Shown in pieces: positions 2,765 through 54,559 of a stretch of DNA of 64,000 bases (position 1 is the stretch's first letter; each line of letters begins with the position of its first letter). The notes beneath the pieces are model-generated. The model did not search any database, was not told the DNA's origin, and was given only the letters and a program-made list of their open reading frames with translations. The stretch spans positions 1-64,000 of the IMG/VR virus record IMGVR_UViG_3300035670_000089, one strand, 5' to 3'. The DNA is from a virus. The translations under genes were made by a program, and so were the position numbers.

Positions 2765-4867
2765 ATGAAGCTACAGGATATCAATAGAGATGTACTGAAC
2801 AACTTAGATAATTCAGTAAGTTTTTCCTTATCGCAGAAAGAGGAAGACCAAGCTTTAGTGATGGATTTACTTCTGTCGAAGATGTATGCCACGCCAACTC
2901 TTTCAGCATGTAGAGAACTAATCTGCAACGCTATAGACGCGAACATCGAAGCGGGGAATGCAAACGAACCTGTCCGGGTAGAACATACACGAGGGATATT
3001 AAGCATTACCGATAGAGGACCGGGTCTATCGGAAGACCGCATCGTTAATGTCTACACCAAGTTTGGGAGTAGCACTAAACGGGAGGACAATACTGCTATC
3101 GGAGGATTCGGTATTGGAGCTAAGTCTGTCTTCTGTATTAGTGATACCCTTACGTTAATAACAACCTGCGACGGGTACACGTACAACTATATATTGTGGT
3201 TAGACGAGAAGAAGATCCCGAGGATTAGTTTAGTTGGTAAGGAGAAGACAAATAGTCCTACGGGAACTACAATACAGATTCCTATCCGAACGAATAGAGT
3301 AAACGATTGTATGATCTTAGCCCAAACCTTAGCGGCTTGGTCTAAAACCCCCATAGTGGTGATAGAGAATGAAGTTCCTTTAGAGCCGCGGCAGGACGCT
3401 GAGTATATTAGACTCGACGACCGCACTCTATTTAAGAACGGCACGGCTAGTCGGGATATACAGTACAAAGTACTAATTGGCGGTGTATTGTATCCATATA
3501 CCCAGTTAGGCACTAAAGCGGATAGATACTTTGATTTACGTCTTCCAAGTAATAGTCAAAGAATGTATTTCCAGACTACGGAATACAGTTGGGGTTGGTC
3601 TAAACGAAATGAACTCATCTTGGAATTCGATATTGGGGAGTTAACGCTTAGCGCTTCTAGAGAGTATATCCTTCAAAACGAACAAAACCTCGCGCTCATT
3701 CAGAAGAGACTCACAAACTGTTGCGCTAAATTAGAGAACATCCAGAACAGGTTAAATAGCTACCCCACTTGGAAAGAATACGTTGAGAACGAAGACTTTC
3801 ACCAAGGAGTACTCCATAGCCTTAACGCGAGGCGTATTATTAGTCCGGGTACCAGAGTTATAGATGTAGGGGAGACCTTAGACGAATTTGCCTGTATTCA
3901 GGATGTAGCAGTCTTCAAGGACGGCAAACAAATTCAACACATCGACCTTACACAGATTACGTTTATACAACTACTGCGGTCTAACCTGTATGTAGTAAGG
4001 CCTAAGGATGAGTTAGTCGTTAAGGACGAGCACCAGAATAACTACATGGTGATAACGGTCCGCACTTTCCAGAATAAATTTTGTGAGACCTACCACGACG
4101 CTATCAACTACCCTCTACCTTACCTCGAGAGACAGGAGAAACTAAGAATAGCTAAAGCTACCGCAGTATCTCACGACGGTATCGAAGGATTAGCTAAGTC
4201 TGGAAAATTACGGTATGTAGACTCAAAATTACTTAAAGACGCAAAGACTACCCTCTCCGTTGCAAAAGTAACCAGAGAATGTAATTTGGATAAGTTATGT
4301 GTATACGCCTACTCAGATAGTTTGAGTAGTAGTTATACATATCCTTGTAATTTCTTACTGGAGACTTTAGAGGCATTTAAGCTCGAGCAGTTATATATAC
4401 TCCCTCCAGATACCAAAGAGCCTAAGAACTTCCGTTTACTGACGCCGTTCCTAGAAGACTATATAAAAGGAATACAGGAGGAACTTGGAGATTGGTTCGG
4501 TTTTATATGCGCGCTCCTAAATAGAGTAACCTGTACAGGATTCCGAAAAGAGTTACCTGACTTGTTAAGTCTTGCCGAAGATTTAAATAACCAAGGCGCG
4601 GTGAACGCCTTAAAGTTATTCACTACCGAGTTAAGTAAATTACGGGCAATAAAGGTATGGAGATGGAATATCCTCTCAGAGGTGGACAGAAAAACCCAAG
4701 GCGATTACCGTTCGACGAATGCCCCCGATTGGATATGTAATTTTGGGATACCTTTACCCGAAGACGATGAGGTAAGAGCAAACTACCACAGTGTAGTCAA
4801 AGCAGCGCCTTCCTATTCTCCATTTTGGAGAAAAGTAATATTGCGGGCGTACAGAGGAGAGATGTAA
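2765..4867 (+). CDS. rIIA: rIIA-like protein with N-terminal GHKL (Hsp90-like) ATPase
   Basis: RELICNAIDA, ITDRGPGLS and FGSSTKRE..IGGFGIGAKS motifs; ELTLSASREYI. Confidence 0.85.
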   Translation: MKLQDINRDVLNNLDNSVSFSLSQKEEDQALVMDLLLSKMYATPTLSACRELICNAIDANIEAGNANEPVRVEHTRGILSITDRGPGLSEDRIVNVYTKFGSSTKREDNTAIGGFGIGAKSVFCISDTLTLITTCDGYTYNYILWLDEKKIPRISLVGKEKTNSPTGTTIQIPIRTNRVNDCMILAQTLAAWSKTPIVVIENEVPLEPRQDAEYIRLDDRTLFKNGTASRDIQYKVLIGGVLYPYTQLGTKADRYFDLRLPSNSQRMYFQTTEYSWGWSKRNELILEFDIGELTLSASREYILQNEQNLALIQKRLTNCCAKLENIQNRLNSYPTWKEYVENEDFHQGVLHSLNARRIISPGTRVIDVGETLDEFACIQDVAVFKDGKQIQHIDLTQITFIQLLRSNLYVVRPKDELVVKDEHQNNYMVITVRTFQNKFCETYHDAINYPLPYLERQEKLRIAKATAVSHDGIEGLAKSGKLRYVDSKLLKDAKTTLSVAKVTRECNLDKLCVYAYSDSLSSSYTYPCNFLLETLEAFKLEQLYILPPDTKEPKNFRLLTPFLEDYIKGIQEELGDWFGFICALLNRVTCTGFRKELPDLLSLAEDLNNQGAVNALKLFTTELSKLRAIKVWRWNILSEVDRKTQGDYRSTNAPDWICNFGIPLPEDDEVRANYHSVVKAAPSYSPFWRKVILRAYRGEM

Positions 4868-4931
4868 CAACCGCAAGACTAAGAGAAATTTTATTCCCTA
4901 AGGGGATGTTGTAAACATTGGAGACAATAAA

Positions 4932-5240
4932 ATGACCGACGTAAATGTATCAGAACTGTTCGACAATTACGAAGAAGACTTTACCGACGAGGTATTGGAA
5001 GAAACGTTCGACGCGTCCAAGCAGGTTATTATCCGTTACGGAACGGAAGAGTTTGCGGCTACCGTCAAGACCGGGCAGACTCTAATCGATATTGTTCGGG
5101 AGCGTAGCGGGGAAATCGGCGTGAGTGATATTCACCGTCTTAACTTCAAAGTTGAGACTGTCTATGTCACTCCGGATTACACCCCCAAACCCGGGGAAGT
5201 AATCACCGCCTCCGCCAACTCCGACAGTAAAGGGTACTAA
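4932..5240 (+). CDS. Ubiquitin-like (beta-grasp) protein with acidic N-terminal extension
   Basis: The ~70-aa core VIIRYG...GQTLIDIV...PDYTPKPGEVITAS ends DSKG-Y. It is the first gene of an E2/JAB/E1 cluster. The fold is inferred from pattern and context. Confidence 0.7.
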   Translation: MTDVNVSELFDNYEEDFTDEVLEETFDASKQVIIRYGTEEFAATVKTGQTLIDIVRERSGEIGVSDIHRLNFKVETVYVTPDYTPKPGEVITASANSDSKGY

Positions 5241-5252
5241 ACTCTAATCTAC

Positions 5253-5283
5253 AAGGCTCCTCCACAGGAGCCTTTTTATTTTT
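5253..5283 (+). terminator. Putative intrinsic terminator after Ubl gene
   Basis: AAGGCTCCT-ccac-AGGAGCCTT hairpin followed by a T-tract. Confidence 0.75.
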
Positions 5284-5298
5284 GAAGGAACCTGCAAA

Positions 5299-6801
5299 AT
5301 GTATAGATTCTTTTTTCCAAAGAATGCAACACATAAAGCTTTAATTCTAGAGAGTAGAAACATCGAAACTTCATGCGACGATCTCAAGAAGTTTGAGCTT
5401 CGGATTCTTGTCGATACTGCCCCTTTAGAACAGGAGGTATATTTAGACGAGGAGATTTTAGAGGAAGAAGCCGAGAATCTCTGTCAGAACTGCTCTATGT
5501 GGAATTACGGGCCAACCCACACCAAAATCCAGCAGGACTTAGTCGAACAACTTAAAGACCCCGAGAGGTTTGACAAGATTGTGAGTACCTGTAATTGGTT
5601 AGACGTGGAGGATATTAACAAATATCGTAACGACTTAAAATCATTTGTACAGCTCTTAGACTGGAGACATGGTGTTGTCCAGGATAAGATAAAAAGGTAT
5701 TACGAAAAGAATACCGATAAATGCGCGGGTAAAAGTAAGATGCACTCCTTGTTCGGCGGCGGGGCACCTATCCTAGAAAAGCCTTGTCGAGCAGGAAACG
5801 AACTTGCGTATACGTTAAAGATTAACGTACCCAGTCTTACTTGGGAACAACATATTACTTTCTTCCTCGATAACTTCTATTTAGGGCAGGACTCTAGAGA
5901 GTTTAGTATATTCGAGAATGGGGTAGGGCAACTGTTAGAGTACTTTAAGAATAATTGGCACTGCTATGAATTCTATCCGTATAGACTACCAAATGTATAC
6001 GAGTACGGAAAGATCTGTTGGGGAGATATTTCTACTCCTGCTGATTTAAGAGAAGCACAAAATGAATTCTACAGCGCCGCCTTCAATAAAGACCTGGCGC
6101 CCACACAGAATCGAGAAGGAAGCGACGATTATCCGTATAAGACAACTTACGAGCACCTTAAATACTACCGCGGAGGGGATGACATTCCCAGTACAGAGAA
6201 CTTAAGTATTTACACAAACGACGTAGTGAATATCCCTGTACCTAAAGAAGCCTTAGGGATATTGATATTTGAGAACGGTAAGTACCGCGCGAATCTTTAC
6301 AGTACAACGGAGACATCTGTCGGGTATAACACTAAAATAAAAATCGTTGCCCGATTTACTCTAGCCTTCATAACCACGTATGATCGCAGTACGAATATCG
6401 TTGACATAGTTGTACCGTTCCAGCACGGCTGTTTCCATACCTATAAGGATATTGAGATGCCGCCGACGTATAGCGTAAATGCCGAAAAGGTAAAATGTCT
6501 ACTGAAGGAGTACCGGGAGTACGCTAAATGTTGCGATAATTACACCACAGAACTAGAAGATCCTCAAGAAGAGCTAAAAGATCTAATCGAGTATGTCACT
6601 CAACATCATCTATTACAAGAGGACTTGTCTCAACTGCGCGAGGCATTACTGGAAGAGTTAAAAGAAATTCCAGACTGCGTAAGAGTAAGAGAGATAGTCA
6701 CCATAATAGAGGTTGCTATCCAAGACTCCCTTTATAAACGATTGGGAGAGTTATACAAAGGTAAATATTACGAGGTACCACAACATGCTTTCATTGTCTA
6801 A
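5299..6801 (+). CDS. Prokaryotic E2-like protein (Prok-E2_D / PRTRC protein B-like) with long N- and C-terminal extensions
   Basis: YRLPNVYEYGKICWG motif contains the candidate catalytic Cys and is followed by FYSAAFNKDL. It sits between the Ubl and JAB genes. Confidence 0.7.
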   Translation: MYRFFFPKNATHKALILESRNIETSCDDLKKFELRILVDTAPLEQEVYLDEEILEEEAENLCQNCSMWNYGPTHTKIQQDLVEQLKDPERFDKIVSTCNWLDVEDINKYRNDLKSFVQLLDWRHGVVQDKIKRYYEKNTDKCAGKSKMHSLFGGGAPILEKPCRAGNELAYTLKINVPSLTWEQHITFFLDNFYLGQDSREFSIFENGVGQLLEYFKNNWHCYEFYPYRLPNVYEYGKICWGDISTPADLREAQNEFYSAAFNKDLAPTQNREGSDDYPYKTTYEHLKYYRGGDDIPSTENLSIYTNDVVNIPVPKEALGILIFENGKYRANLYSTTETSVGYNTKIKIVARFTLAFITTYDRSTNIVDIVVPFQHGCFHTYKDIEMPPTYSVNAEKVKCLLKEYREYAKCCDNYTTELEDPQEELKDLIEYVTQHHLLQEDLSQLREALLEELKEIPDCVRVREIVTIIEVAIQDSLYKRLGELYKGKYYEVPQHAFIV

Positions 6802-7945
6802 TGCGCCCCAAACTCAAGAACGAGTATCATTCCTCCGTACAAAGGACGGATGTTATAAACTAAACCGGAGTCCGTATTGGGGAACTTACTACACCAAGAT
6901 TAATGACCCTAAAGGAGTAGATACCCCGAAGGACATCAATTGTCTACAACTCAAAGATAACTTTGAGAAGCTACCCTTTGATCTTCTAGGAGGAATTGTA
7001 ACCTTCTTCCGAGAGTATATGACAAAACAAAACGGTCGATATATCGAAGGAGCAACCGAGGTATCGGTCTGTCTACTTCGCTCTGAAACCGACCCGTCTC
7101 AATGGAAGGTAGTTGTACCTCTGCAAGAAGTAACGGCGGTGACTGTAGACGCACGCACTGAATATAGTTGCGATCTGTTTACCGGAGAAGAATATACTGT
7201 ATTCCCTCCTGAAGGTTGGCTCCATGCAGGCAGCCTCCACAGCCACCAACAAATGGATGCCTTTTGGAGCAGTCGGGATGACCAGGGAGAGTTAGAGGTA
7301 CCGGGGATGCATTGTACGGTAGGTTCTATTACCGACCATTCTTTCTCTATTTGCAGTTCTATCGTTCTAAATAAGAACCGCTATATATACGACCCGCGGC
7401 ATTTGTTAGAGATTCCGCCGAACAGTGTAGCTCCCTCGCCTACCTCGCCTAAGTCAATTTATAGCGCAACCCGGACTAAAGGAATCACTATCAACTTTAG
7501 CGAGAAGGTAGAAATCTCTGATGTCTGTCATAACTACGTCAATTTACCAAAAGTGTCCGCTACCTATTCTCACTACCGTAAGCCCAACGTTAAAATTGGT
7601 CTAGCCAATACTTCATACGAGTATGACGATTGGTACTACGGAAGTAGTTACAGTGGGCTCGGCGGAGCGTTCGGGGACGTTGGCTGGTATAACAGTTTTG
7701 AAGAGAAGGAAGAACTCGAGAAACAAGTAAAGCCGTGGTTAGAGAAAGTTGGCAACTTAGTGGAACCCGAGTACCCGGTTAATGTATCGATTAAGGAAGC
7801 TCTAGTGGAGTTAAACGAAGCCTTAGAGAAGTTGTGCCTGGTAGAAGGCGGGCACCAACTAATCGCGGCTTGTATTGGAAAGCATCTAGACTTCCCAACC
7901 AATTTGGAAGAAGCCGAGAAGATTGTTGAGTACCTGCTTGACTAA
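6785..7945 (+). CDS. JAB/MPN+ metallo-isopeptidase (PRTRC protein A-like)
   Basis: KLPFDLLGGIVTFFRE, upstream Glu in ATEVSV, and the JAMM motif HSHQQMDAFWSSRDD. Likely start is the ATG at 6785, overlapping the E2 gene end. Confidence 0.88.
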   Translation: MLSLSNAPQTQERVSFLRTKDGCYKLNRSPYWGTYYTKINDPKGVDTPKDINCLQLKDNFEKLPFDLLGGIVTFFREYMTKQNGRYIEGATEVSVCLLRSETDPSQWKVVVPLQEVTAVTVDARTEYSCDLFTGEEYTVFPPEGWLHAGSLHSHQQMDAFWSSRDDQGELEVPGMHCTVGSITDHSFSICSSIVLNKNRYIYDPRHLLEIPPNSVAPSPTSPKSIYSATRTKGITINFSEKVEISDVCHNYVNLPKVSATYSHYRKPNVKIGLANTSYEYDDWYYGSSYSGLGGAFGDVGWYNSFEEKEELEKQVKPWLEKVGNLVEPEYPVNVSIKEALVELNEALEKLCLVEGGHQLIAACIGKHLDFPTNLEEAEKIVEYLLD

Positions 7946-7952
7946 AGACAGT

Positions 7953-7972
7953 GGGGGTTTTATCCCCCTTTT
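7953..7972 (+). terminator. Weak terminator-like hairpin between JAB and E1
   Basis: GGGGG-ttttat-CCCCC-TTTT. Confidence 0.45.
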
Positions 7973-7992
7973 AACCCATTCGCAGTTTTACT

Positions 7993-8715
7993 ATGAAATT
8001 TAGCACTTGCCATATCATTGGAGCCGGGGGTACCGGAACCATCTTGATGGAACCTCTTATCCGGATGTTATCGTACCATCCAAATGGAACAAGGAAGTTC
8101 TATGTATACGACAAAGACCATTACGAACCGAAGAATAACGTAAGACAACTCTTCGACCCGCAGTACTGCGGTATGAATAAAGCGTTAGCCGCCGAGGAAC
8201 GATATAAGAGTATCTGCGATATCACCGGCATCCCTGAATACGTTAAGCGGCGGGAGTTTGGGGGGATGATTAGTAATGTCTACGATAGTTATAACGACGG
8301 GGCGGTTCTCATTATTCTAGCCGTCGACAACGAACGCACACGACATGAAGTCATTAAAGACTTGGATGAATTGAATCCACGTATCGACTTCGCGTGTGTC
8401 CTCCCCGGGAATGAATATAACACCGCCTCCTGTGTCTGGTATAACCGCGTAAAAGGGATGCTCAAACCTATCCACCCGTTTGAAGTCGTTACTAACTTTG
8501 CTGTCCCGACCGATCAACACCCAGGCAGTTGTGGATACGAGGCGGTCTCATCACCCCAGTTGATTAATGCGAACTTCGCTTCTGCCTTAATTACCTGTGA
8601 AGTGGTCTACGCCTTACTCGAGGATAAGAATCTTCCCTTCCGGGTTAACTACAGCAGTACTGAACTGAATATGTATACGGAAGGACGATTCCTCCCTGTC
8701 CAAGCCCTGATTTAA
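7993..8715 (+). CDS. ThiF/E1-like adenylating enzyme
   Basis: IIGAGGTG nucleotide-binding loop, YDKDHYEPKNNVRQ, NKA and AVDNERTR; candidate catalytic Cys in HPGSCG. Confidence 0.92.
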   Translation: MKFSTCHIIGAGGTGTILMEPLIRMLSYHPNGTRKFYVYDKDHYEPKNNVRQLFDPQYCGMNKALAAEERYKSICDITGIPEYVKRREFGGMISNVYDSYNDGAVLIILAVDNERTRHEVIKDLDELNPRIDFACVLPGNEYNTASCVWYNRVKGMLKPIHPFEVVTNFAVPTDQHPGSCGYEAVSSPQLINANFASALITCEVVYALLEDKNLPFRVNYSSTELNMYTEGRFLPVQALI

Positions 8716-8716
8716 C

Positions 8717-8751
8717 TGATACTCTGGACTATAGTTTAGTCCAGAGTATCA
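8717..8751. terminator. Perfect 15-bp stem-loop closing the Ubl operon
   Basis: TGATACTCTGGACTA-tagtt-TAGTCCAGAGTATCA, immediately after the E1 stop. Confidence 0.65.
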
Positions 8752-9151: not shown

Positions 9152-9385
9152 ATGGAAGTAAATGTAGAGAAGTTCCGAGAATTGAAGCAGAAGGTTAAGA
9201 GTGACGAGGTGAGTATGAAGTTGATGTATATACTCTCCCTCGAGAATGAAGTAAGCGATAAGGTAATAGAGTTCGCTACGAGACTCGAGAGGATAACTGA
9301 TGTGTATATACACCCCACCGGTAAAGTAGGGATTAATGGGATTGTAAACGGGCTACACAGATACAAAGAGTTTAAGAGCGTTTGA
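9152..9385 (+). CDS. Hypothetical protein
   Basis: Co-oriented ORF with phage-like composition. Confidence 0.55.
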   Translation: MEVNVEKFRELKQKVKSDEVSMKLMYILSLENEVSDKVIEFATRLERITDVYIHPTGKVGINGIVNGLHRYKEFKSV

Positions 9386-11272: not shown

Positions 11273-11419
11273 ATGAAAGCACTGTGGAAAAAAGAGATGG
11301 ACAAGATGCTAAAGAAATATTGCGAGAAGGAAGGACTAGACCCCAGAACCTTGGAGCCTATCCCAAGTCTTAAGAGTGACCGTAATAACCCCGTCGAGAT
11401 GAGTAACTCGAGAAACTAA
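11273..11419 (+). CDS. Possible 48-aa protein overlapping the recombinase 3' end
   Basis: ATG 2 nt after the thyX stop; translation MKALWKKEMDKMLKKYCEKEGLDPRTLEPIP... Confidence 0.35.
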   Translation: MKALWKKEMDKMLKKYCEKEGLDPRTLEPIPSLKSDRNNPVEMSNSRN

Positions 11420-12814
11420 TGCATCAAAGATAAGTTTAAGTCCAGATACATCTGTCTCTTCCCAAAATCCCGGTTGTGTGATAATGCGTTGTAGTTTAGA
11501 TAGATCGTATTTATATTCAAAAGTCTCTTCAAGCAGTTTACTTTTTAGAATAGTAAGCTGCTTTCTTTTCAACTCAATAATATCCACCAAGTCGGGGTCT
11601 TGTAGGGATTCTAGTTTATGTATACGAGTACAGAGTTCTACATATTCTGAAGACTCTTGAAGTATGGACTCACTATCTGAAACATCTTTTTGAGTCCAAA
11701 CTAAAGATAACTCTTCCGCCCGATCCATGATAGCCTCAATAGTCTTCTGGACATAGTCCTCCAAATGATAACCATGGCTACCTCTCTGGGAACATTCTGG
11801 TAATCCTAATCGGGAATAAAAGCGGGTATCGCAGTATAAATAAGTATAACGGAGTTTATTGCGTCTATTGATGCTAGTGCAACAGCGCATCTTCGTACCA
11901 CACTCTCCGCAGAAAATTAAACCAGATAGAGGATTAAGGATAGGGCGGTGTTTAGATGTATCGCCGCGGAATTTTGATCCTATAGATAAATAGTATTTAA
12001 TCTCGGACCATTCCTCCATTGATAATAAGGCTGGAGGATTATAATCCGAGGCCTGCCTTTTGTCCTTATCCTTCCAAAAATATATCAATTCTCCTCTCAA
12101 AATAGGTATGTTTAACCAATACTTAAACCCTACCGCTGTAAGCGGGAATACCTCGCCCTTCTTCGGGCGCCCTTGAATCTTAACATTGTACTTAGAGACC
12201 ATTGTACTTAATGTTTTTCGGAGAGACCAGTTATCCAAATAAAGCTCTATAAGCTCTCTAGCGACTTGAGCTTTGGTCTTATTAGTATCAAGAAAGAGAG
12301 AGTCGTCTAGGATAACTTTACCTTCAGGATTTAAACGATATCCAAAGGGAGTGGCGCAGCTTTTGTTATGAGCGCGGCGATATTTCATTCCTTGGATAGA
12401 ATTATATTTATTCATCTTTTGGGTAAGACTGGCCGCGGCGGCCATTACAGTATTGGTAAATTCTCCGTAAGGGGTATCAATATCTATACGCCCTTTATCT
12501 AATAAAACTACTTCTACTCCTAACTTCTGTAACTCTTCCGCTGCGTGTTCCCAATCCAGGACATTACGAGTAAATCTATCAAAACAAGGAACCACCAATA
12601 CATTTGATGTTCCAGTGCGTAACCGCTCCATTACAATCTGGTAACCGGCTCTTTTAGAAGTAGCCCCGGACTCAATATCCCAAAAGATATTTTCCTCGGA
12701 CACTCCATACTTACGGAGTTGTTGTATATATCTCTCTAGGGCATGTCCTTCTGTAAACTGTCTCTGAGTTGATACTCTACAATACCCTATTAATCTCTTG
12801 TCCTCCTTACCCAT
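11336..12814 (-). CDS. Large serine recombinase (integrase; XisF-like architecture)
   Basis: Catalytic Ser in IGYCRVSTQRQ, then ESG..R, FDRFTR and PFGYR; zinc ribbon LSGLIFCGECG...YLYC...C; coiled coil. Confidence 0.95.
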   Translation of the reverse strand: MGKEDKRLIGYCRVSTQRQFTEGHALERYIQQLRKYGVSEENIFWDIESGATSKRAGYQIVMERLRTGTSNVLVVPCFDRFTRNVLDWEHAAEELQKLGVEVVLLDKGRIDIDTPYGEFTNTVMAAAASLTQKMNKYNSIQGMKYRRAHNKSCATPFGYRLNPEGKVILDDSLFLDTNKTKAQVARELIELYLDNWSLRKTLSTMVSKYNVKIQGRPKKGEVFPLTAVGFKYWLNIPILRGELIYFWKDKDKRQASDYNPPALLSMEEWSEIKYYLSIGSKFRGDTSKHRPILNPLSGLIFCGECGTKMRCCTSINRRNKLRYTYLYCDTRFYSRLGLPECSQRGSHGYHLEDYVQKTIEAIMDRAEELSLVWTQKDVSDSESILQESSEYVELCTRIHKLESLQDPDLVDIIELKRKQLTILKSKLLEETFEYKYDLSKLQRIITQPGFWEETDVSGLKLIFDALVSRVTHLDGVITVTLKTWDRLQGSGV

Positions 12815-51610: not shown

Positions 51611-54559
51611 TCAATATTGGTCAAAGGGATGCACCGCTACTCCCATATCTGAGTTCCCCCAACCGGATTTAGAGTAATTCGTGCGGACACTCCTTACAAA
51701 TTCTTTCCTATCTACAGAGAACCCCTCAACAACACTATCCTTATCGTCTCTAAGACTCTTCTTCCCTTTCTTAAAGGTTAAGGATTGCCCTGATGTAACC
51801 GAACTGGACTTCGCAAGTTCATTCCCTATTAACTGCCAAGTCACCGCGGCTATGCAGTCTGCGATATCCTTACTGTTATGGACGAAAACTCCCGCGCTAA
51901 GGGCAAAATTATCCCATTCATCAACTTCTAAATCGTAAACAGGTACGGCAGTCTCCAATATTACGGGTATAACAGCCCGTACCTTATGGTTATTTCCCTT
52001 TCCTCTATATCTAAAATCTTCCCAACCTTTGTACCCTTGTGAAGCTACACAACGAATTACTGCGTCTTTAGTGCATTTCAAAGTATTGCATACGTCCATA
52101 AGCCGCTTATTACGGTTTTCAAAGGCTTGTACCACTTCCTCAAATGTCACAACACTACGTTGGTTGTCATCCTTAAGGCTATAGGCGTCCCCAGCAGTAA
52201 ATTTGAGATGAAAATATTCTTTCTCGAAACTCTCCCAGGAATCAAATCCGCAATCTCTTAAAAGACGTATCACCAAATTCCTCGATAAATCTAAATAAGT
52301 CGCGGCCTGATGCGCATTAGAGCACCCTACCTTAAGAGCCTCGTATAAAACCGACGTGTCCACATCTCTTCTAAAAAGACCTGTTTTCCTCGCTCTCTCT
52401 AAATACCACTCGGAAGAGCGGCTTCGCATAGACTCAGATCTTTTTCTTCTTGTAGATTCTTTTTTATTAAAAGCAATAGTGCCCTCGGAAAGTTTATGTC
52501 TATACGTAGGATCTTTTTTGTGAGCCTCAGCCGTATGGTAAGAAGTGTGTTGCGATCTTGGTATGACTTCTAAATTCTCCGGGCGGTTATCCGTCTTAAC
52601 GTGATTTTTGTGGTGGACTATCTCACTATCTTCTAGTTCAGGATAACCAAGAGCCATACGATGAGTCCAAATAAACTCTCCGATACTTTTGACTTTTTCG
52701 TAACCTCCGCCTATAGGCCAGGATAAATGTAAAGGCATAAGTCTAGTAACCCCTGGAATAATATCCGCCGCCTTTATATAACTACCGGTTCTGGTCATGA
52801 AAGGATGATCCGGAGTACACCGAATAACTGCCCCATTATCCAAAACAACATCTACTAACTCTTTAACTTCTTTAGTCTTACGCCCTCTAGCCAGACCCGG
52901 GACAACCGTCCCATCAGGTTTACAACTATAAACCCACACTTCTTTACCTTCTAACTCAGCTATAGTAGGGCGAGTACCATCTAATAAAGGAATCCGTGTA
53001 TCCCCCGTGAAACAACCTCCGGGCCTATGGTCGATTTTCACATTCCGGATTAACTCTAAGTTTAGTAGTTCATCCTTTAGTAGATTCGTCCAAGGGGAGT
53101 TCTTCGGTAGATATAATCTATCCTCGTGGAGGAGTTTACGTACAGCGTCATACATCGCCAACTGTTTATTGTTCGCGAAATGTATAGTCTCCGTAGGTAT
53201 CCCGCTGGACTTCAACCGCTGCAAAGTCTCCGCAGATTCCTTTTGGTCCGCGGTTACCTTCGATAAGGGCTGTCTAGCATGTATCTGATAAATACACTGT
53301 TGGACGTTCACAATAGATACCGTAGCGCCATCCACAGGTATCCACGCCATAATCCCATCTATAATGACGCAGTCCTTACCGTCGATATTCTCTAAATGTC
53401 CGTAGGCTAAAGCATATGCGTCCCTGGTGATAGCGGGGTCCAAGTGCATAACCGTATACCCGCGATATACCGGTAAATCTTCTACATTAAGCCGGATTAA
53501 TCGGTCTTCTTGTACTGGTAGTTCCGTTACTCTAAGGAGAGACATCTTACGGAATGCTCTCTTAACCTCTCTCTCTTCTAAGAAGGCGTTCTCGTTTGCC
53601 TGGCGGATTCCTTCGTATAACAACTCCGCTTTCTTGCGGTTAGATATATACATAGAATCCACAACTGGATTATTGCGACTTGCATGGATTGGGTTTACCA
53701 TCCAAGACTTCAAGCGGAAGCCAATCCAACCTGAACTCTGAGTAGAATCCTCGTACAGTTTTACAAGGGCGTCCCCTTCACACCTGGCGGAGGAGATAAT
53801 AACCCGTTTAGCATCACTCGCAAAAGGTAAGCCCCCCGCGCCTAAATCATCCCAAAGGTTCAGGGCGTTAGATTCTCCATTCTTATCGTCGAACATCGCC
53901 CCTTCATCCAAAATAATCAGGATAGGACTACCCCCTACCTGAGTCTCAGACTTAGAGTTACCGGAGTATATATACAACAGCTTCTCGTCATACCGTATCA
54001 TCTTTTCCTGGGCGTCTATTTTACCGGCATCGATAAGCCGCCTCAAGAAGAAGACATTCTGCATCATCGCCTTCGCTTGACCGTAAATAGTCTTACTAGC
54101 TTGTTCAGCAGAAGGAGCAACGCAGATAATCGAGATTAGAGTCGAAGACGCGATTCCATAATTCAACTGTGGAGAATCCATCCGCGCCAAGAGTTCAAAC
54201 TCATAATTAATGATAAGAGACCCCATTAGGGATTTTCCACTACGCCGCCCCGCCTCTAAAACTAAGTTCTGTCTCTTTATTGGACCGTAATCAAAATCGT
54301 AGGTAGTCCTATCCAGGGTCTTCCAGTACTCCAAGATAGAATATTCCTGGTCTGTGAGTTCTACACCGTAGTAGGTCTTTAAGATAAGACGTTGCTGCGG
54401 AGTAAGCTCAATACCCAACGTCTCCTTGTCGACACCCCCGTTGTCGTACCAGTCGATAATGTCGGAGTACTCTACTCCACTGGCGAACTTAGACTCTAAA
54501 TTAGAGACAAACCCGCCAAAGAAATCGCTTACATCAAAAGCCCCTTTAGATATACTCAT
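51611..54559 (-). CDS. terL: Terminase large subunit, intein-containing
   Basis: LTPQQ, Walker A EAGRRSGKS, APSAEQA, Walker B IILDEGA, IISS; nuclease HLDPA...D and IDHRPGG/SKDIAD. Confidence 0.92.
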   Translation of the reverse strand: MSISKGAFDVSDFFGGFVSNLESKFASGVEYSDIIDWYDNGGVDKETLGIELTPQQRLILKTYYGVELTDQEYSILEYWKTLDRTTYDFDYGPIKRQNLVLEAGRRSGKSLMGSLIINYEFELLARMDSPQLNYGIASSTLISIICVAPSAEQASKTIYGQAKAMMQNVFFLRRLIDAGKIDAQEKMIRYDEKLLYIYSGNSKSETQVGGSPILIILDEGAMFDDKNGESNALNLWDDLGAGGLPFASDAKRVIISSARCEGDALVKLYEDSTQSSGWIGFRLKSWMVNPIHASRNNPVVDSMYISNRKKAELLYEGIRQANENAFLEEREVKRAFRKMSLLRVTELPVQEDRLIRLNVEDLPVYRGYTVMHLDPAITRDAYALAYGHLENIDGKDCVIIDGIMAWIPVDGATVSIVNVQQCIYQIHARQPLSKVTADQKESAETLQRLKSSGIPTETIHFANNKQLAMYDAVRKLLHEDRLYLPKNSPWTNLLKDELLNLELIRNVKIDHRPGGCFTGDTRIPLLDGTRPTIAELEGKEVWVYSCKPDGTVVPGLARGRKTKEVKELVDVVLDNGAVIRCTPDHPFMTRTGSYIKAADIIPGVTRLMPLHLSWPIGGGYEKVKSIGEFIWTHRMALGYPELEDSEIVHHKNHVKTDNRPENLEVIPRSQHTSYHTAEAHKKDPTYRHKLSEGTIAFNKKESTRRKRSESMRSRSSEWYLERARKTGLFRRDVDTSVLYEALKVGCSNAHQAATYLDLSRNLVIRLLRDCGFDSWESFEKEYFHLKFTAGDAYSLKDDNQRSVVTFEEVVQAFENRNKRLMDVCNTLKCTKDAVIRCVASQGYKGWEDFRYRGKGNNHKVRAVIPVILETAVPVYDLEVDEWDNFALSAGVFVHNSKDIADCIAAVTWQLIGNELAKSSSVTSGQSLTFKKGKKSLRDDKDSVVEGFSVDRKEFVRSVRTNYSKSGWGNSDMGVAVHPFDQY
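51875..53014 (-). mobile_element. Intein (380 aa) with HNH endonuclease in TerL
   Basis: Starts CFTGDTRI; CTPDHPF; HNH segment WTHRMA...VHHKNHVKTDNRPENLEVI...H...H; ends VYDLEV...FVHN followed by Ser+1. Confidence 0.93.

Follow-up and report, generated by a model that had tools for sequence, protein, structure and literature searches.

This study concerns a four-gene cassette in a 64,000-nt stretch of viral DNA (hereafter the window), which comprises positions 1-64,000 of the IMG/VR virus record IMGVR_UViG_3300035670_000089; coordinates are window positions unless a contig is named. The source record is 97.6 kb long, with a completeness of 66% according to CheckV. Four open reading frames (ORFs), all on the plus strand at 4932-8715, encode in this order a ubiquitin-like protein (Ubl), a candidate for the conjugating enzyme (E2), a JAB metallopeptidase, and a minimal activating enzyme (E1), i.e., the parts of a ubiquitin-like conjugation cascade (Table 1). 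A preliminary description, made from the letters alone, had already reported four contiguous, co-oriented genes closed by a 15-bp hairpin. The genes are as it described them, each of the motifs it quoted was found in the ORF translations, and the closing hairpin is a perfect stem, though one with no T-run behind it.

Table 1. Predicted features of the candidate conjugation cassette, with the introns found in related contigs (contig coordinates are preceded by the contig label)
Feature	Position	Strand	Description
Ubl precursor	4932-5240	+	102 aa; leader ~1-28 (acidic, disordered), core 31-95 (beta-grasp), tail ...SKG-Y
Terminator-like hairpin and T-tract, Ubl/E2 interval	5253-5284	+	Stem, then TTTTTATTTTTG
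E2-like carrier candidate	5299-6801	+	500 aa; tetracysteine module, E2 core, variable C-terminal region of ~230 aa
JAB/JAMM metallopeptidase	6785-7945	+	386 aa from ATG; N-terminal half conserved, with active site; C-terminal half variable
Minimal E1, ThiF/UBA-type adenylating enzyme	7993-8715	+	240 aa; candidate catalytic Cys180
Perfect 15-bp hairpin	8717-8751	+	Directly 3' of E1 stop codon; 5-nt loop
JAB group I introns	L005:4649-5757; L091:5046-5286; L092:5078-5318; L101:4966-5202		Rfam

The closing hairpin is very stable (-25.1 kcal/mol, z = -6.2), and none of 200 shuffled sequences folded equally well. Because no T-run follows the stem, it is not a canonical intrinsic terminator; it may serve as a terminator or as a processing site. 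Between the Ubl and E2 genes there is a second hairpin, whose 9-bp GC-rich stem (5253-5274; -14.2 kcal/mol, z = -2.5) is followed by a T-tract and which could act as a terminator. As for the JAB gene, its reading frame is open from 6713 (410 aa). The ATG given in Table 1 is the likely start, because the N-termini of the homologues agree with it and because a start at this point overlaps the E2 stop codon by 17 nt.

The E1 contains the motifs GAGGTG (residues 10-15), N48-x2-R51-Q52, and PGSC (177-180). It passes the Pfam ThiF model (PF00899; E = 6e-13, 48.9 bits, cut-off 28.1) and also matches two NCBIfam models, the ThiF model NF006395 (1.5e-5) and PRTRC_ThiF (5.6e-11, 42.2 bits over residues 6-214 of 240), the latter below its cut-off of 144.75. 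When a profile of 15 family members was compared with the sequences in the PDB, UBA5 came first (3.3e-11 over residues 5-221), with TcdA, the NEDD8 E1, the SUMO E1, ThiF, and MoeB ranking lower. The profile alignment places Cys180 of the PGSC motif opposite the cysteine in GVCAAS, a segment of UBA5; that cysteine is the catalytic Cys250 of UBA5. Eleven residues are invariant in the 15 sequences (G10, G12, G13, G15, D40, D42, R51, Q52, K63, D112, and C180), and all those of the ATP/Mg site are among them (the Gly residues of GxGxxG, R51, Q52, K63, and D112). In PADLOC, the E1 finds only the E1-E2 (Cap2) models of the cyclic-oligonucleotide-based antiphage signaling system (CBASS), and these weakly (1.4e-6, residues 7-73). 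By its sequence the protein is a bona fide ThiF/UBA-type enzyme, which agrees with the call made in the preliminary description, and Cys180, located at the catalytic position of UBA5, is its candidate thioester cysteine.

The Ubl, which ends in ...SDSKGY, has no match in library scans of Pfam and NCBIfam; with regard to the NCBIfam model PRTRC_C, neither the window protein nor any of eight relatives matches it. A structure was modeled with AlphaFold from an alignment (A2) of eight relatives, with a predicted local distance difference test (pLDDT) score of 74.6 overall and 84-89 in the core, and with the order of elements bb-a-bb-b. The top Foldseek matches of this model are SUMO, ubiquitin, ISG15, and the bacterial Ubl 8tyx (E-values of 4e-4 to 3e-3, probability 1.00), with template modeling (TM) scores to the target of 0.6-0.7. 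The preliminary description had made its interpretation depend on a beta-grasp fold in this protein, and it is as a beta-grasp fold that the protein models.

No feature of the cassette is more informative than the end of this chain. G88 and K100 are invariant across the relatives. Their terminal Lys-Gly precedes a variable extension of 0-11 residues (Y, A, F, S, LG, VY, AA, RH, DPKAQ, QPDSKGGFQSV, or none). Since an invariant Lys-Gly carries an unconserved extension, the Ubl looks like a capped precursor that is matured by a peptidase. One genome with terminal repeats (L006, 370.8 kb) has two Ubl copies, at 3008-3334 and 4482-4808; their C-terminal halves are identical, and both end exactly in ...EQKG, with no capping residue.

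Of the four identity calls, that of the 500-aa protein as an E2 is the weakest, and the sequence comparisons support it at the level of the family. The window protein itself scores just under the gathering threshold of the Pfam family Prok-E2_D (PF14460; 6.1e-5, 23.2 bits against 25). The same model, the sole Pfam family matched by this group, is found by 14 of the 19 family members at E<=0.01 (best 6.6e-11), and five relatives (P0017, P0018, P0019, P0021, and P0022) pass the threshold with 25.8-42.7 bits. One 104-kb NCBI contig carries both P0002 and P0017. The conserved segment, LPNVYEYGKICWG, occupies residues 230-242, and within it N232, V233, C240, W241, and G242 do not vary across 19 sequences. 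A second set of sequences keeps C240 in 18 of 18 and has C62, C65, C142, and C163 near-invariant (17-18 of 18). Because these four extra cysteines are kept in nearly all members, they probably form a zinc site. The full-length model (500 residues) is poor, with a mean pLDDT of 58; around C240 it has four strands (172-227), a loop carrying N232 and C240, and a helix (250-259), in an order compatible with that of the ubiquitin-conjugating (UBC) fold. The top row of a structural search in the ESM Atlas is a Prok-E2_D cluster, with TM scores of only 0.21/0.43. For the family, then, the E2 proposed in the preliminary description finds support in the matches to Prok-E2_D and in the invariant Cys240.

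Some relatives have more than one such protein. A second, shorter E2 paralogue (314 aa, with NVYRDGEICWG) lies between the JAB and E1 genes in two loci (L002:7070-8014 and L003:5954-6898), so that there are two E2s per one E1.

The JAB contains HSHQQMDAFWSSRD, that is, HSH-x7-S-x2-D. The preliminary description regarded this motif as intact, and it is constant in the family: E91, H151, S152, H153, S161, and D164 (numbering of alignment A4; counted from the ATG, each number is one higher) are invariant in seven sequences, and E...HxH-x7-S-xx-D is present in most of the further loci too. Against Pfam Prok-JAB the window protein reaches 13.7 bits, below the gathering threshold of 25. The model is matched weakly by all seven JAB members, with a best E-value of 2.9e-4, and the JAB of locus L087 reaches 24.2 bits. 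The match to the NCBIfam model PRTRC_A is also weak (0.0019, 17.8 bits; cut-off 101.8), and a JAB profile found nothing meaningful among the PDB sequences.

In four related contigs the JAB gene is split by group I introns (Rfam RF00028 Intron_gpI, 55-83 bits; Table 1). The one in L005 holds an ORF for a LAGLIDADG homing endonuclease (4685-5590) and interrupts the coding sequence within the JAMM motif, immediately after HSHNTM; in L091, L092, and L101 the first JAB gene fragment is without the complete motif. Group I introns typically insert in strongly constrained, expressed genes, and for this reason the JAB gene appears to be one of them.

Are these four genes neighbors by chance? The preliminary description had called for a survey of the operon across phages. 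The survey found the cassette again in ~28 other viral contigs of 40-371 kb, from two sets of IMG/VR loci: L002-L008, on contigs of 56-371 kb that include the 370.8-kb genome mentioned above, and L087-L107, on contigs of 40-284 kb. Hidden Markov models built from the window family detected, in 24 non-redundant loci, the E1 in 24, the JAB in 23, the E2 in 22, and the Ubl in 20. Two of the four Ubl gaps (L094 and L097) are at contig ends, and in the other two (G001 and G002) the Ubl is 8-20 kb away in the same genome. All four families occur together in every complete related locus, so that the cassette goes beyond a chance association. The complete operon of Ubl, E2, JAB, and E1 that was first read from the window is thus one conserved unit, located on a phage record. 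Its gene order varies and its content is kept: Ubl-E2-JAB-E1, Ubl-JAB-E2-E1, or a set with the Ubl unlinked. In both genomes of the last kind (L084:1798-3279 and L085:1866-3296) the Ubl is directly upstream of a sigma-70-like gene, which appears to be split by a large intein-like insertion. As for the E1 family, it has ~15 close clusters, and a profile search retrieves 237 clusters at E<=1e-10, all of them unnamed and metagenomic.

The cassette looks virus-restricted, as judged from the searches at hand. A first pattern scan of 185,579 prokaryote species genomes, of limited sensitivity, found no relative; a second scan of the same genomes gave one match, on a 4-kb contig of a metagenome-assembled genome from an uncultured bacterium. 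Among GenBank phages, no match to the region was found by megablast, and tblastn of the E1 gave one weak match (MT835919, 27% identity). Scans of viral contigs with a single E1 and a single E2 sequence found none. In the ESM Atlas, the neighbors of the E2 and the JAB are mostly viral clusters, some of them labeled Prok-E2_D or Prok-JAB.

Equally relevant is how the cassette compares with the genomes that carry it. Across related genomes the E1 is 40-62% identical. For three other window proteins (one virion protein, rIIA, and one further large protein), the match in the five related genomes searched is either missing or only 33-40% identical over part of the length. Vertical inheritance together with the phage backbone was considered and rejected, because conservation is lower in the backbone proteins than in the cassette. 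The cassette appears instead to move among distant large phages, or else to be under much stronger constraint.

Several further observations concern the composition and the reach of these loci. Directly 3' of the E1, 13 loci of the Ubl-JAB-E2-E1 clade have an unannotated ORF of ~112 aa (for instance, L087:7717-8112). The window lacks this ORF, and Pfam gave no match for it; it could be a clade-specific fifth component. In the window, a 77-aa ORF (9152-9385) was considered as a fifth component and rejected, being found only in G003/L003. More distant viral contigs hold candidates for E2-JAB-E1 sets (L009, L010, L011, L030, and L034) and for JAB-E1 pairs (L012, L018, L026, L029, and L076), with an E1 that in several of the distant contigs is longer, ~380-440 aa. 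Related cassettes therefore reach beyond the two clades analyzed. Finally, ~50 gut-type contigs (L019-L080) encode a different small ThiF-like E1 and, ~0.8 kb downstream of it, an ORF of 205-228 aa with an E2-like N-x8-CMG (NMLTGNAMCMG); an example of the pair is L020:7962-10073. Both proteins stay under the PRTRC cut-offs. These contigs may represent another E1/E2 family, borne by viruses or by mobile genetic elements. They were rejected as comparators for PRTRC, because the E1 of L020 is under the PRTRC cut-off and its neighbors have no NCBIfam match.

The surroundings of the cassette are of the early/replication type, with rIIA, MazG-like, deoxynucleoside-monophosphate-kinase-like, ThyX, RNR, primase, and PhoH genes; T5orf172 was also found among the neighbors scanned. 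The gene just upstream (2765-4867) is rIIA-like (phrog_612, 9.5e-56). It was rejected as a part of the system, since it is not adjacent in other loci.

This neighborhood bears on two explanations that differ from protein tagging in infection. The first is that there is no conjugation at all: the Ubl would be a sulfur carrier of the ThiS/MoaD/CysO type served by a Mec+-like JAB, or the E1 would activate a C-terminus in the manner of MccB/PaaA for peptide modification. Trios of E1, beta-grasp protein, and JAB are indeed used for sulfur transfer (Iyer 2006, PMC1779556), the E1 matches ThiF models as seen above, and the Ubl of one relative weakly matches Pfam ThiS (0.0062). However, a Cys-bearing protein of the Prok-E2_D type is kept in every complete locus, and the E1 profile is nearer to UBA5 (~3e-11) than to ThiF and MoeB (3e-7 to 6e-5). 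In addition, no thiamine, molybdopterin, rhodanese, desulfurase, or other sulfur-transfer family was matched among the neighbors scanned, which is in line with the preliminary description, where no thiamine, molybdopterin, or sulfur-transfer genes were seen nearby. For these three reasons a role of this kind is very unlikely.

The second explanation places the cassette in virion morphogenesis. Pairs of Ubl and JAB have been predicted in the tail modules of lambdoid as well as T1-like phages (Iyer et al. 2006, PMC1779556), and the Ubl and JAB discussed here could act like the tail-assembly proteins I and K of lambda, with the E1 and E2 attaching or processing a structural protein, for example, a giant virion protein; the genome does encode unusual giant proteins. 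The position of the cassette speaks against this, as it is among genes for replication and nucleotide metabolism, outside the structural module. Moreover, it is common to phages that have no detectably related structural proteins, and the lambda-type systems are without E1 or E2. We consider this explanation quite improbable.

Elsewhere in the window, a single ORF of 6999 aa extends over 29918-50917 (-). A 982-aa protein (51611-54559, -) matches terminase large subunits and contains an HNH endonuclease segment at residues ~616-822, possibly an intein or else an inserted endonuclease. A tRNA gene (970-1043, +; 61 bits) is the only Rfam match. A link of the cassette to a retron was considered and rejected, as the whole 97.6-kb record gave no match to the reverse transcriptase family RVT_1.

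How might the four proteins work together? The Ubl would first appear as a precursor with a capped end (...K-G-Y), and the terminator-like hairpin after its gene may cause it to outnumber the enzymes. The JAB would trim the residues beyond Gly101, and the minimal E1 would adenylate this glycine and load the Ubl on Cys180 as a thioester. From there, the Ubl would be handed to Cys240 of the E2-like protein, which would move it to lysines of target proteins. Possibly, the tetracysteine module and the variable C-terminal domain of the E2 are built-in substrate selectors, and the JAB may also reverse the conjugation. With moderate confidence, we propose that the cassette is a working ubiquitin-like conjugation cascade, an accessory of large, apparently lytic phages that acts for the phage in infection.

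Which proteins would be tagged, and for whose benefit? Most likely, the cascade modifies host or host-defense proteins, for takeover or counter-defense. The same chemistry could also serve a role like that of the bacterial Bil systems, namely as a cargo for defense or superinfection exclusion that tags the structural proteins of competing phages and shields the infected cell or the lysogen. Bil operons are built of the same four parts, and phage proteins are their demonstrated targets (10.1101/2023.09.04.556158; PMC11601603). The better conservation of the cassette relative to the backbone suggests a horizontal movement like that of defense cargo, and a gene for a large serine recombinase/integrase (11336-12814, -; phrog_95, 1e-53) lies 2.6 kb downstream. 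Nonetheless, this recombinase gene is not shared by the other cassette loci, no PADLOC model matched the Ubl, E2, or JAB at E<=0.1, with the E1 finding only the weak CBASS match, and the family is nearly absent from the 185,579 species genomes of bacteria and archaea, in which defense cargo borne by prophages would normally be seen. A Bil-like role is in our opinion unlikely, and a role in the defense of the lysogen is the less likely one. A role on the side of the infecting phage is favored over Bil-like exclusion because the family is nearly confined to viral contigs and because the cassette is in a region of the early type.

A bolder reading, which we put forward tentatively and hold to be possible rather than probable, is that large lytic phages have in this cassette a Ubl writer of their own that is used as a weapon: early in infection, covalent tagging would inactivate or redirect host proteins, be they defense sensors and effectors or central machinery. 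The fast-varying C-terminal domains of the E2 and the JAB would then be host-specific target selectors. If true, this would be, as far as we found, the first description in prokaryotic viruses of a ubiquitin-like conjugation system used for attack, and a phage weapon that is the mirror image of the bacterial Bil defense.

A number of points weigh against the proposed cascade or its role in lytic infection. The chemistry is a prediction, both for this cassette and for its nearest relatives, the class 6d/PRTRC operons. No UBC match was obtained for the 500-aa protein by Foldseek against the PDB, by VIA-align wide (both run with the model of pLDDT 58), or by the PDB profile search, and both the E2 and the JAB of the window are under their Pfam cut-offs. 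The Ubl of L004 ends in Lys-Ala and not in Lys-Gly, the sole exception among the relatives examined. No target, E3, or sensor was identified for the cassette, and no fifth gene is conserved across all of its loci. The nearby serine recombinase hints that the phage may be temperate. Lastly, the rarity of the cassette in bacteria is derived from two pattern-based scans of limited sensitivity.

With regard to known systems, we take the class 6d operons of Iyer, Burroughs & Aravind (2006) to be the same as the PRTRC cassette of plasmids and integrative and conjugative elements (TIGR03735-03738) and as Prok-E2_D. Class 6d operons combine a Ubl, a JAB, and both an E1-like and an E2-like protein (Iyer et al. 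2006, PMC1779556). The likeness is considerable: the same four protein classes are encoded by separate genes on a mobile element, and the E2 has a conserved Cys and no classical HPN histidine. The comparison with PRTRC drawn in the preliminary description holds in that, of the NCBIfam models, PRTRC_ThiF, PRTRC_B, and PRTRC_A come closest to the E1, E2, and JAB; it does not extend to membership, as all three are far below their cut-offs (42 against 145 bits, 17.1 against 131.45, and 17.8 against 101.8, respectively). The Ubl, for its part, has no PRTRC_C match. The cassette is on a phage and not on a plasmid or an integrative and conjugative element, no ParB-related family was matched among the neighbors scanned, and no alpha-helical PRTRC partner was seen. 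The E2s differ as well: those of the cassette have 330-520 aa, with the tetracysteine module and a long variable tail, compared with the 228 positions of the PRTRC_B model, and the Cys is followed by W-G, whereas in 6d E2s a His located C-terminal to the Cys is reported to be absolutely conserved (Iyer et al., PMC1779556). On sequence criteria, then, the cassette is most like the class 6d/PRTRC operons and, by thresholds, not a member of them. Of 45 papers that mention PRTRC, the titles and abstracts of the 20 ranked highest suggested no mechanistic study.

The BilABCD systems (types I and II) are alike in having a separate Ubl, E2, JAB deubiquitinase, and E1, and in the C-terminal Gly of the Ubl, which serves conjugation in Bil and would do so in the cassette. 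BilABCD is the only system of such architecture with demonstrated targets, a central tail fiber of a phage (10.1101/2023.09.04.556158; PMC11601603). The differences are that Bil is bacterial and antiphage, whereas it is phages that encode the cassette, with almost no trace of it in bacteria, and that the two beta-grasp domains of type I BilA contrast with the single one, plus an acidic leader, of the cassette Ubl. No sequence match to Bil proteins was found in PADLOC, in whose release the presence of Bil models is unconfirmed, or in the PDB profile searches; the sole link is structural, through the bacterial Ubl 8tyx among the matches of the Ubl model.

Type II CBASS, with Cap2 and Cap3, likewise brings E1, E2, and JAB chemistry into the conflict between phage and bacterium; its Cap2 models are the only PADLOC matches of the E1, and Cap2 chains are in the list of PDB matches. 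However, CBASS fuses the E2 to the E1 and has the CD-NTase as the tag, whereas in the cassette the genes are separate and a beta-grasp tag has a gene of its own; neither a CD-NTase nor an effector was seen near it. The eukaryotic pair UBA5-UFM1 offers a fourth comparison: UBA5 is a small, noncanonical, single-domain E1, the best match among solved structures, with a Cys at the aligned position. At variance with it, the cassette is without a UFC1-like E2 and without similarity to UFM1, and the identity is low. The resemblance, to judge from the sequences, probably reflects a shared minimal adenylation domain and not orthology.

What sets the cassette apart is the side on which it is found. The bacterial systems with demonstrated conjugation, i.e., Bil, Bub, and CBASS Cap2/3, are all encoded by the host (PMC11601603). 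CBASS and Bil are antiphage defenses. No published description of a complete cascade encoded by a phage was found in the literature. The cassette is compact, complete, and widespread in uncultured large phages, and it has stayed intact through the shuffling of gene order, duplication, and intron invasion; its four proteins are also of a small size that permits direct reconstitution in E. coli. If they do conjugate proteins, this would give a function to the long-uncharacterized 6d/Prok-E2_D branch predicted in 2006, and phages would be using the same chemistry as Bil and CBASS on their own side of the conflict.

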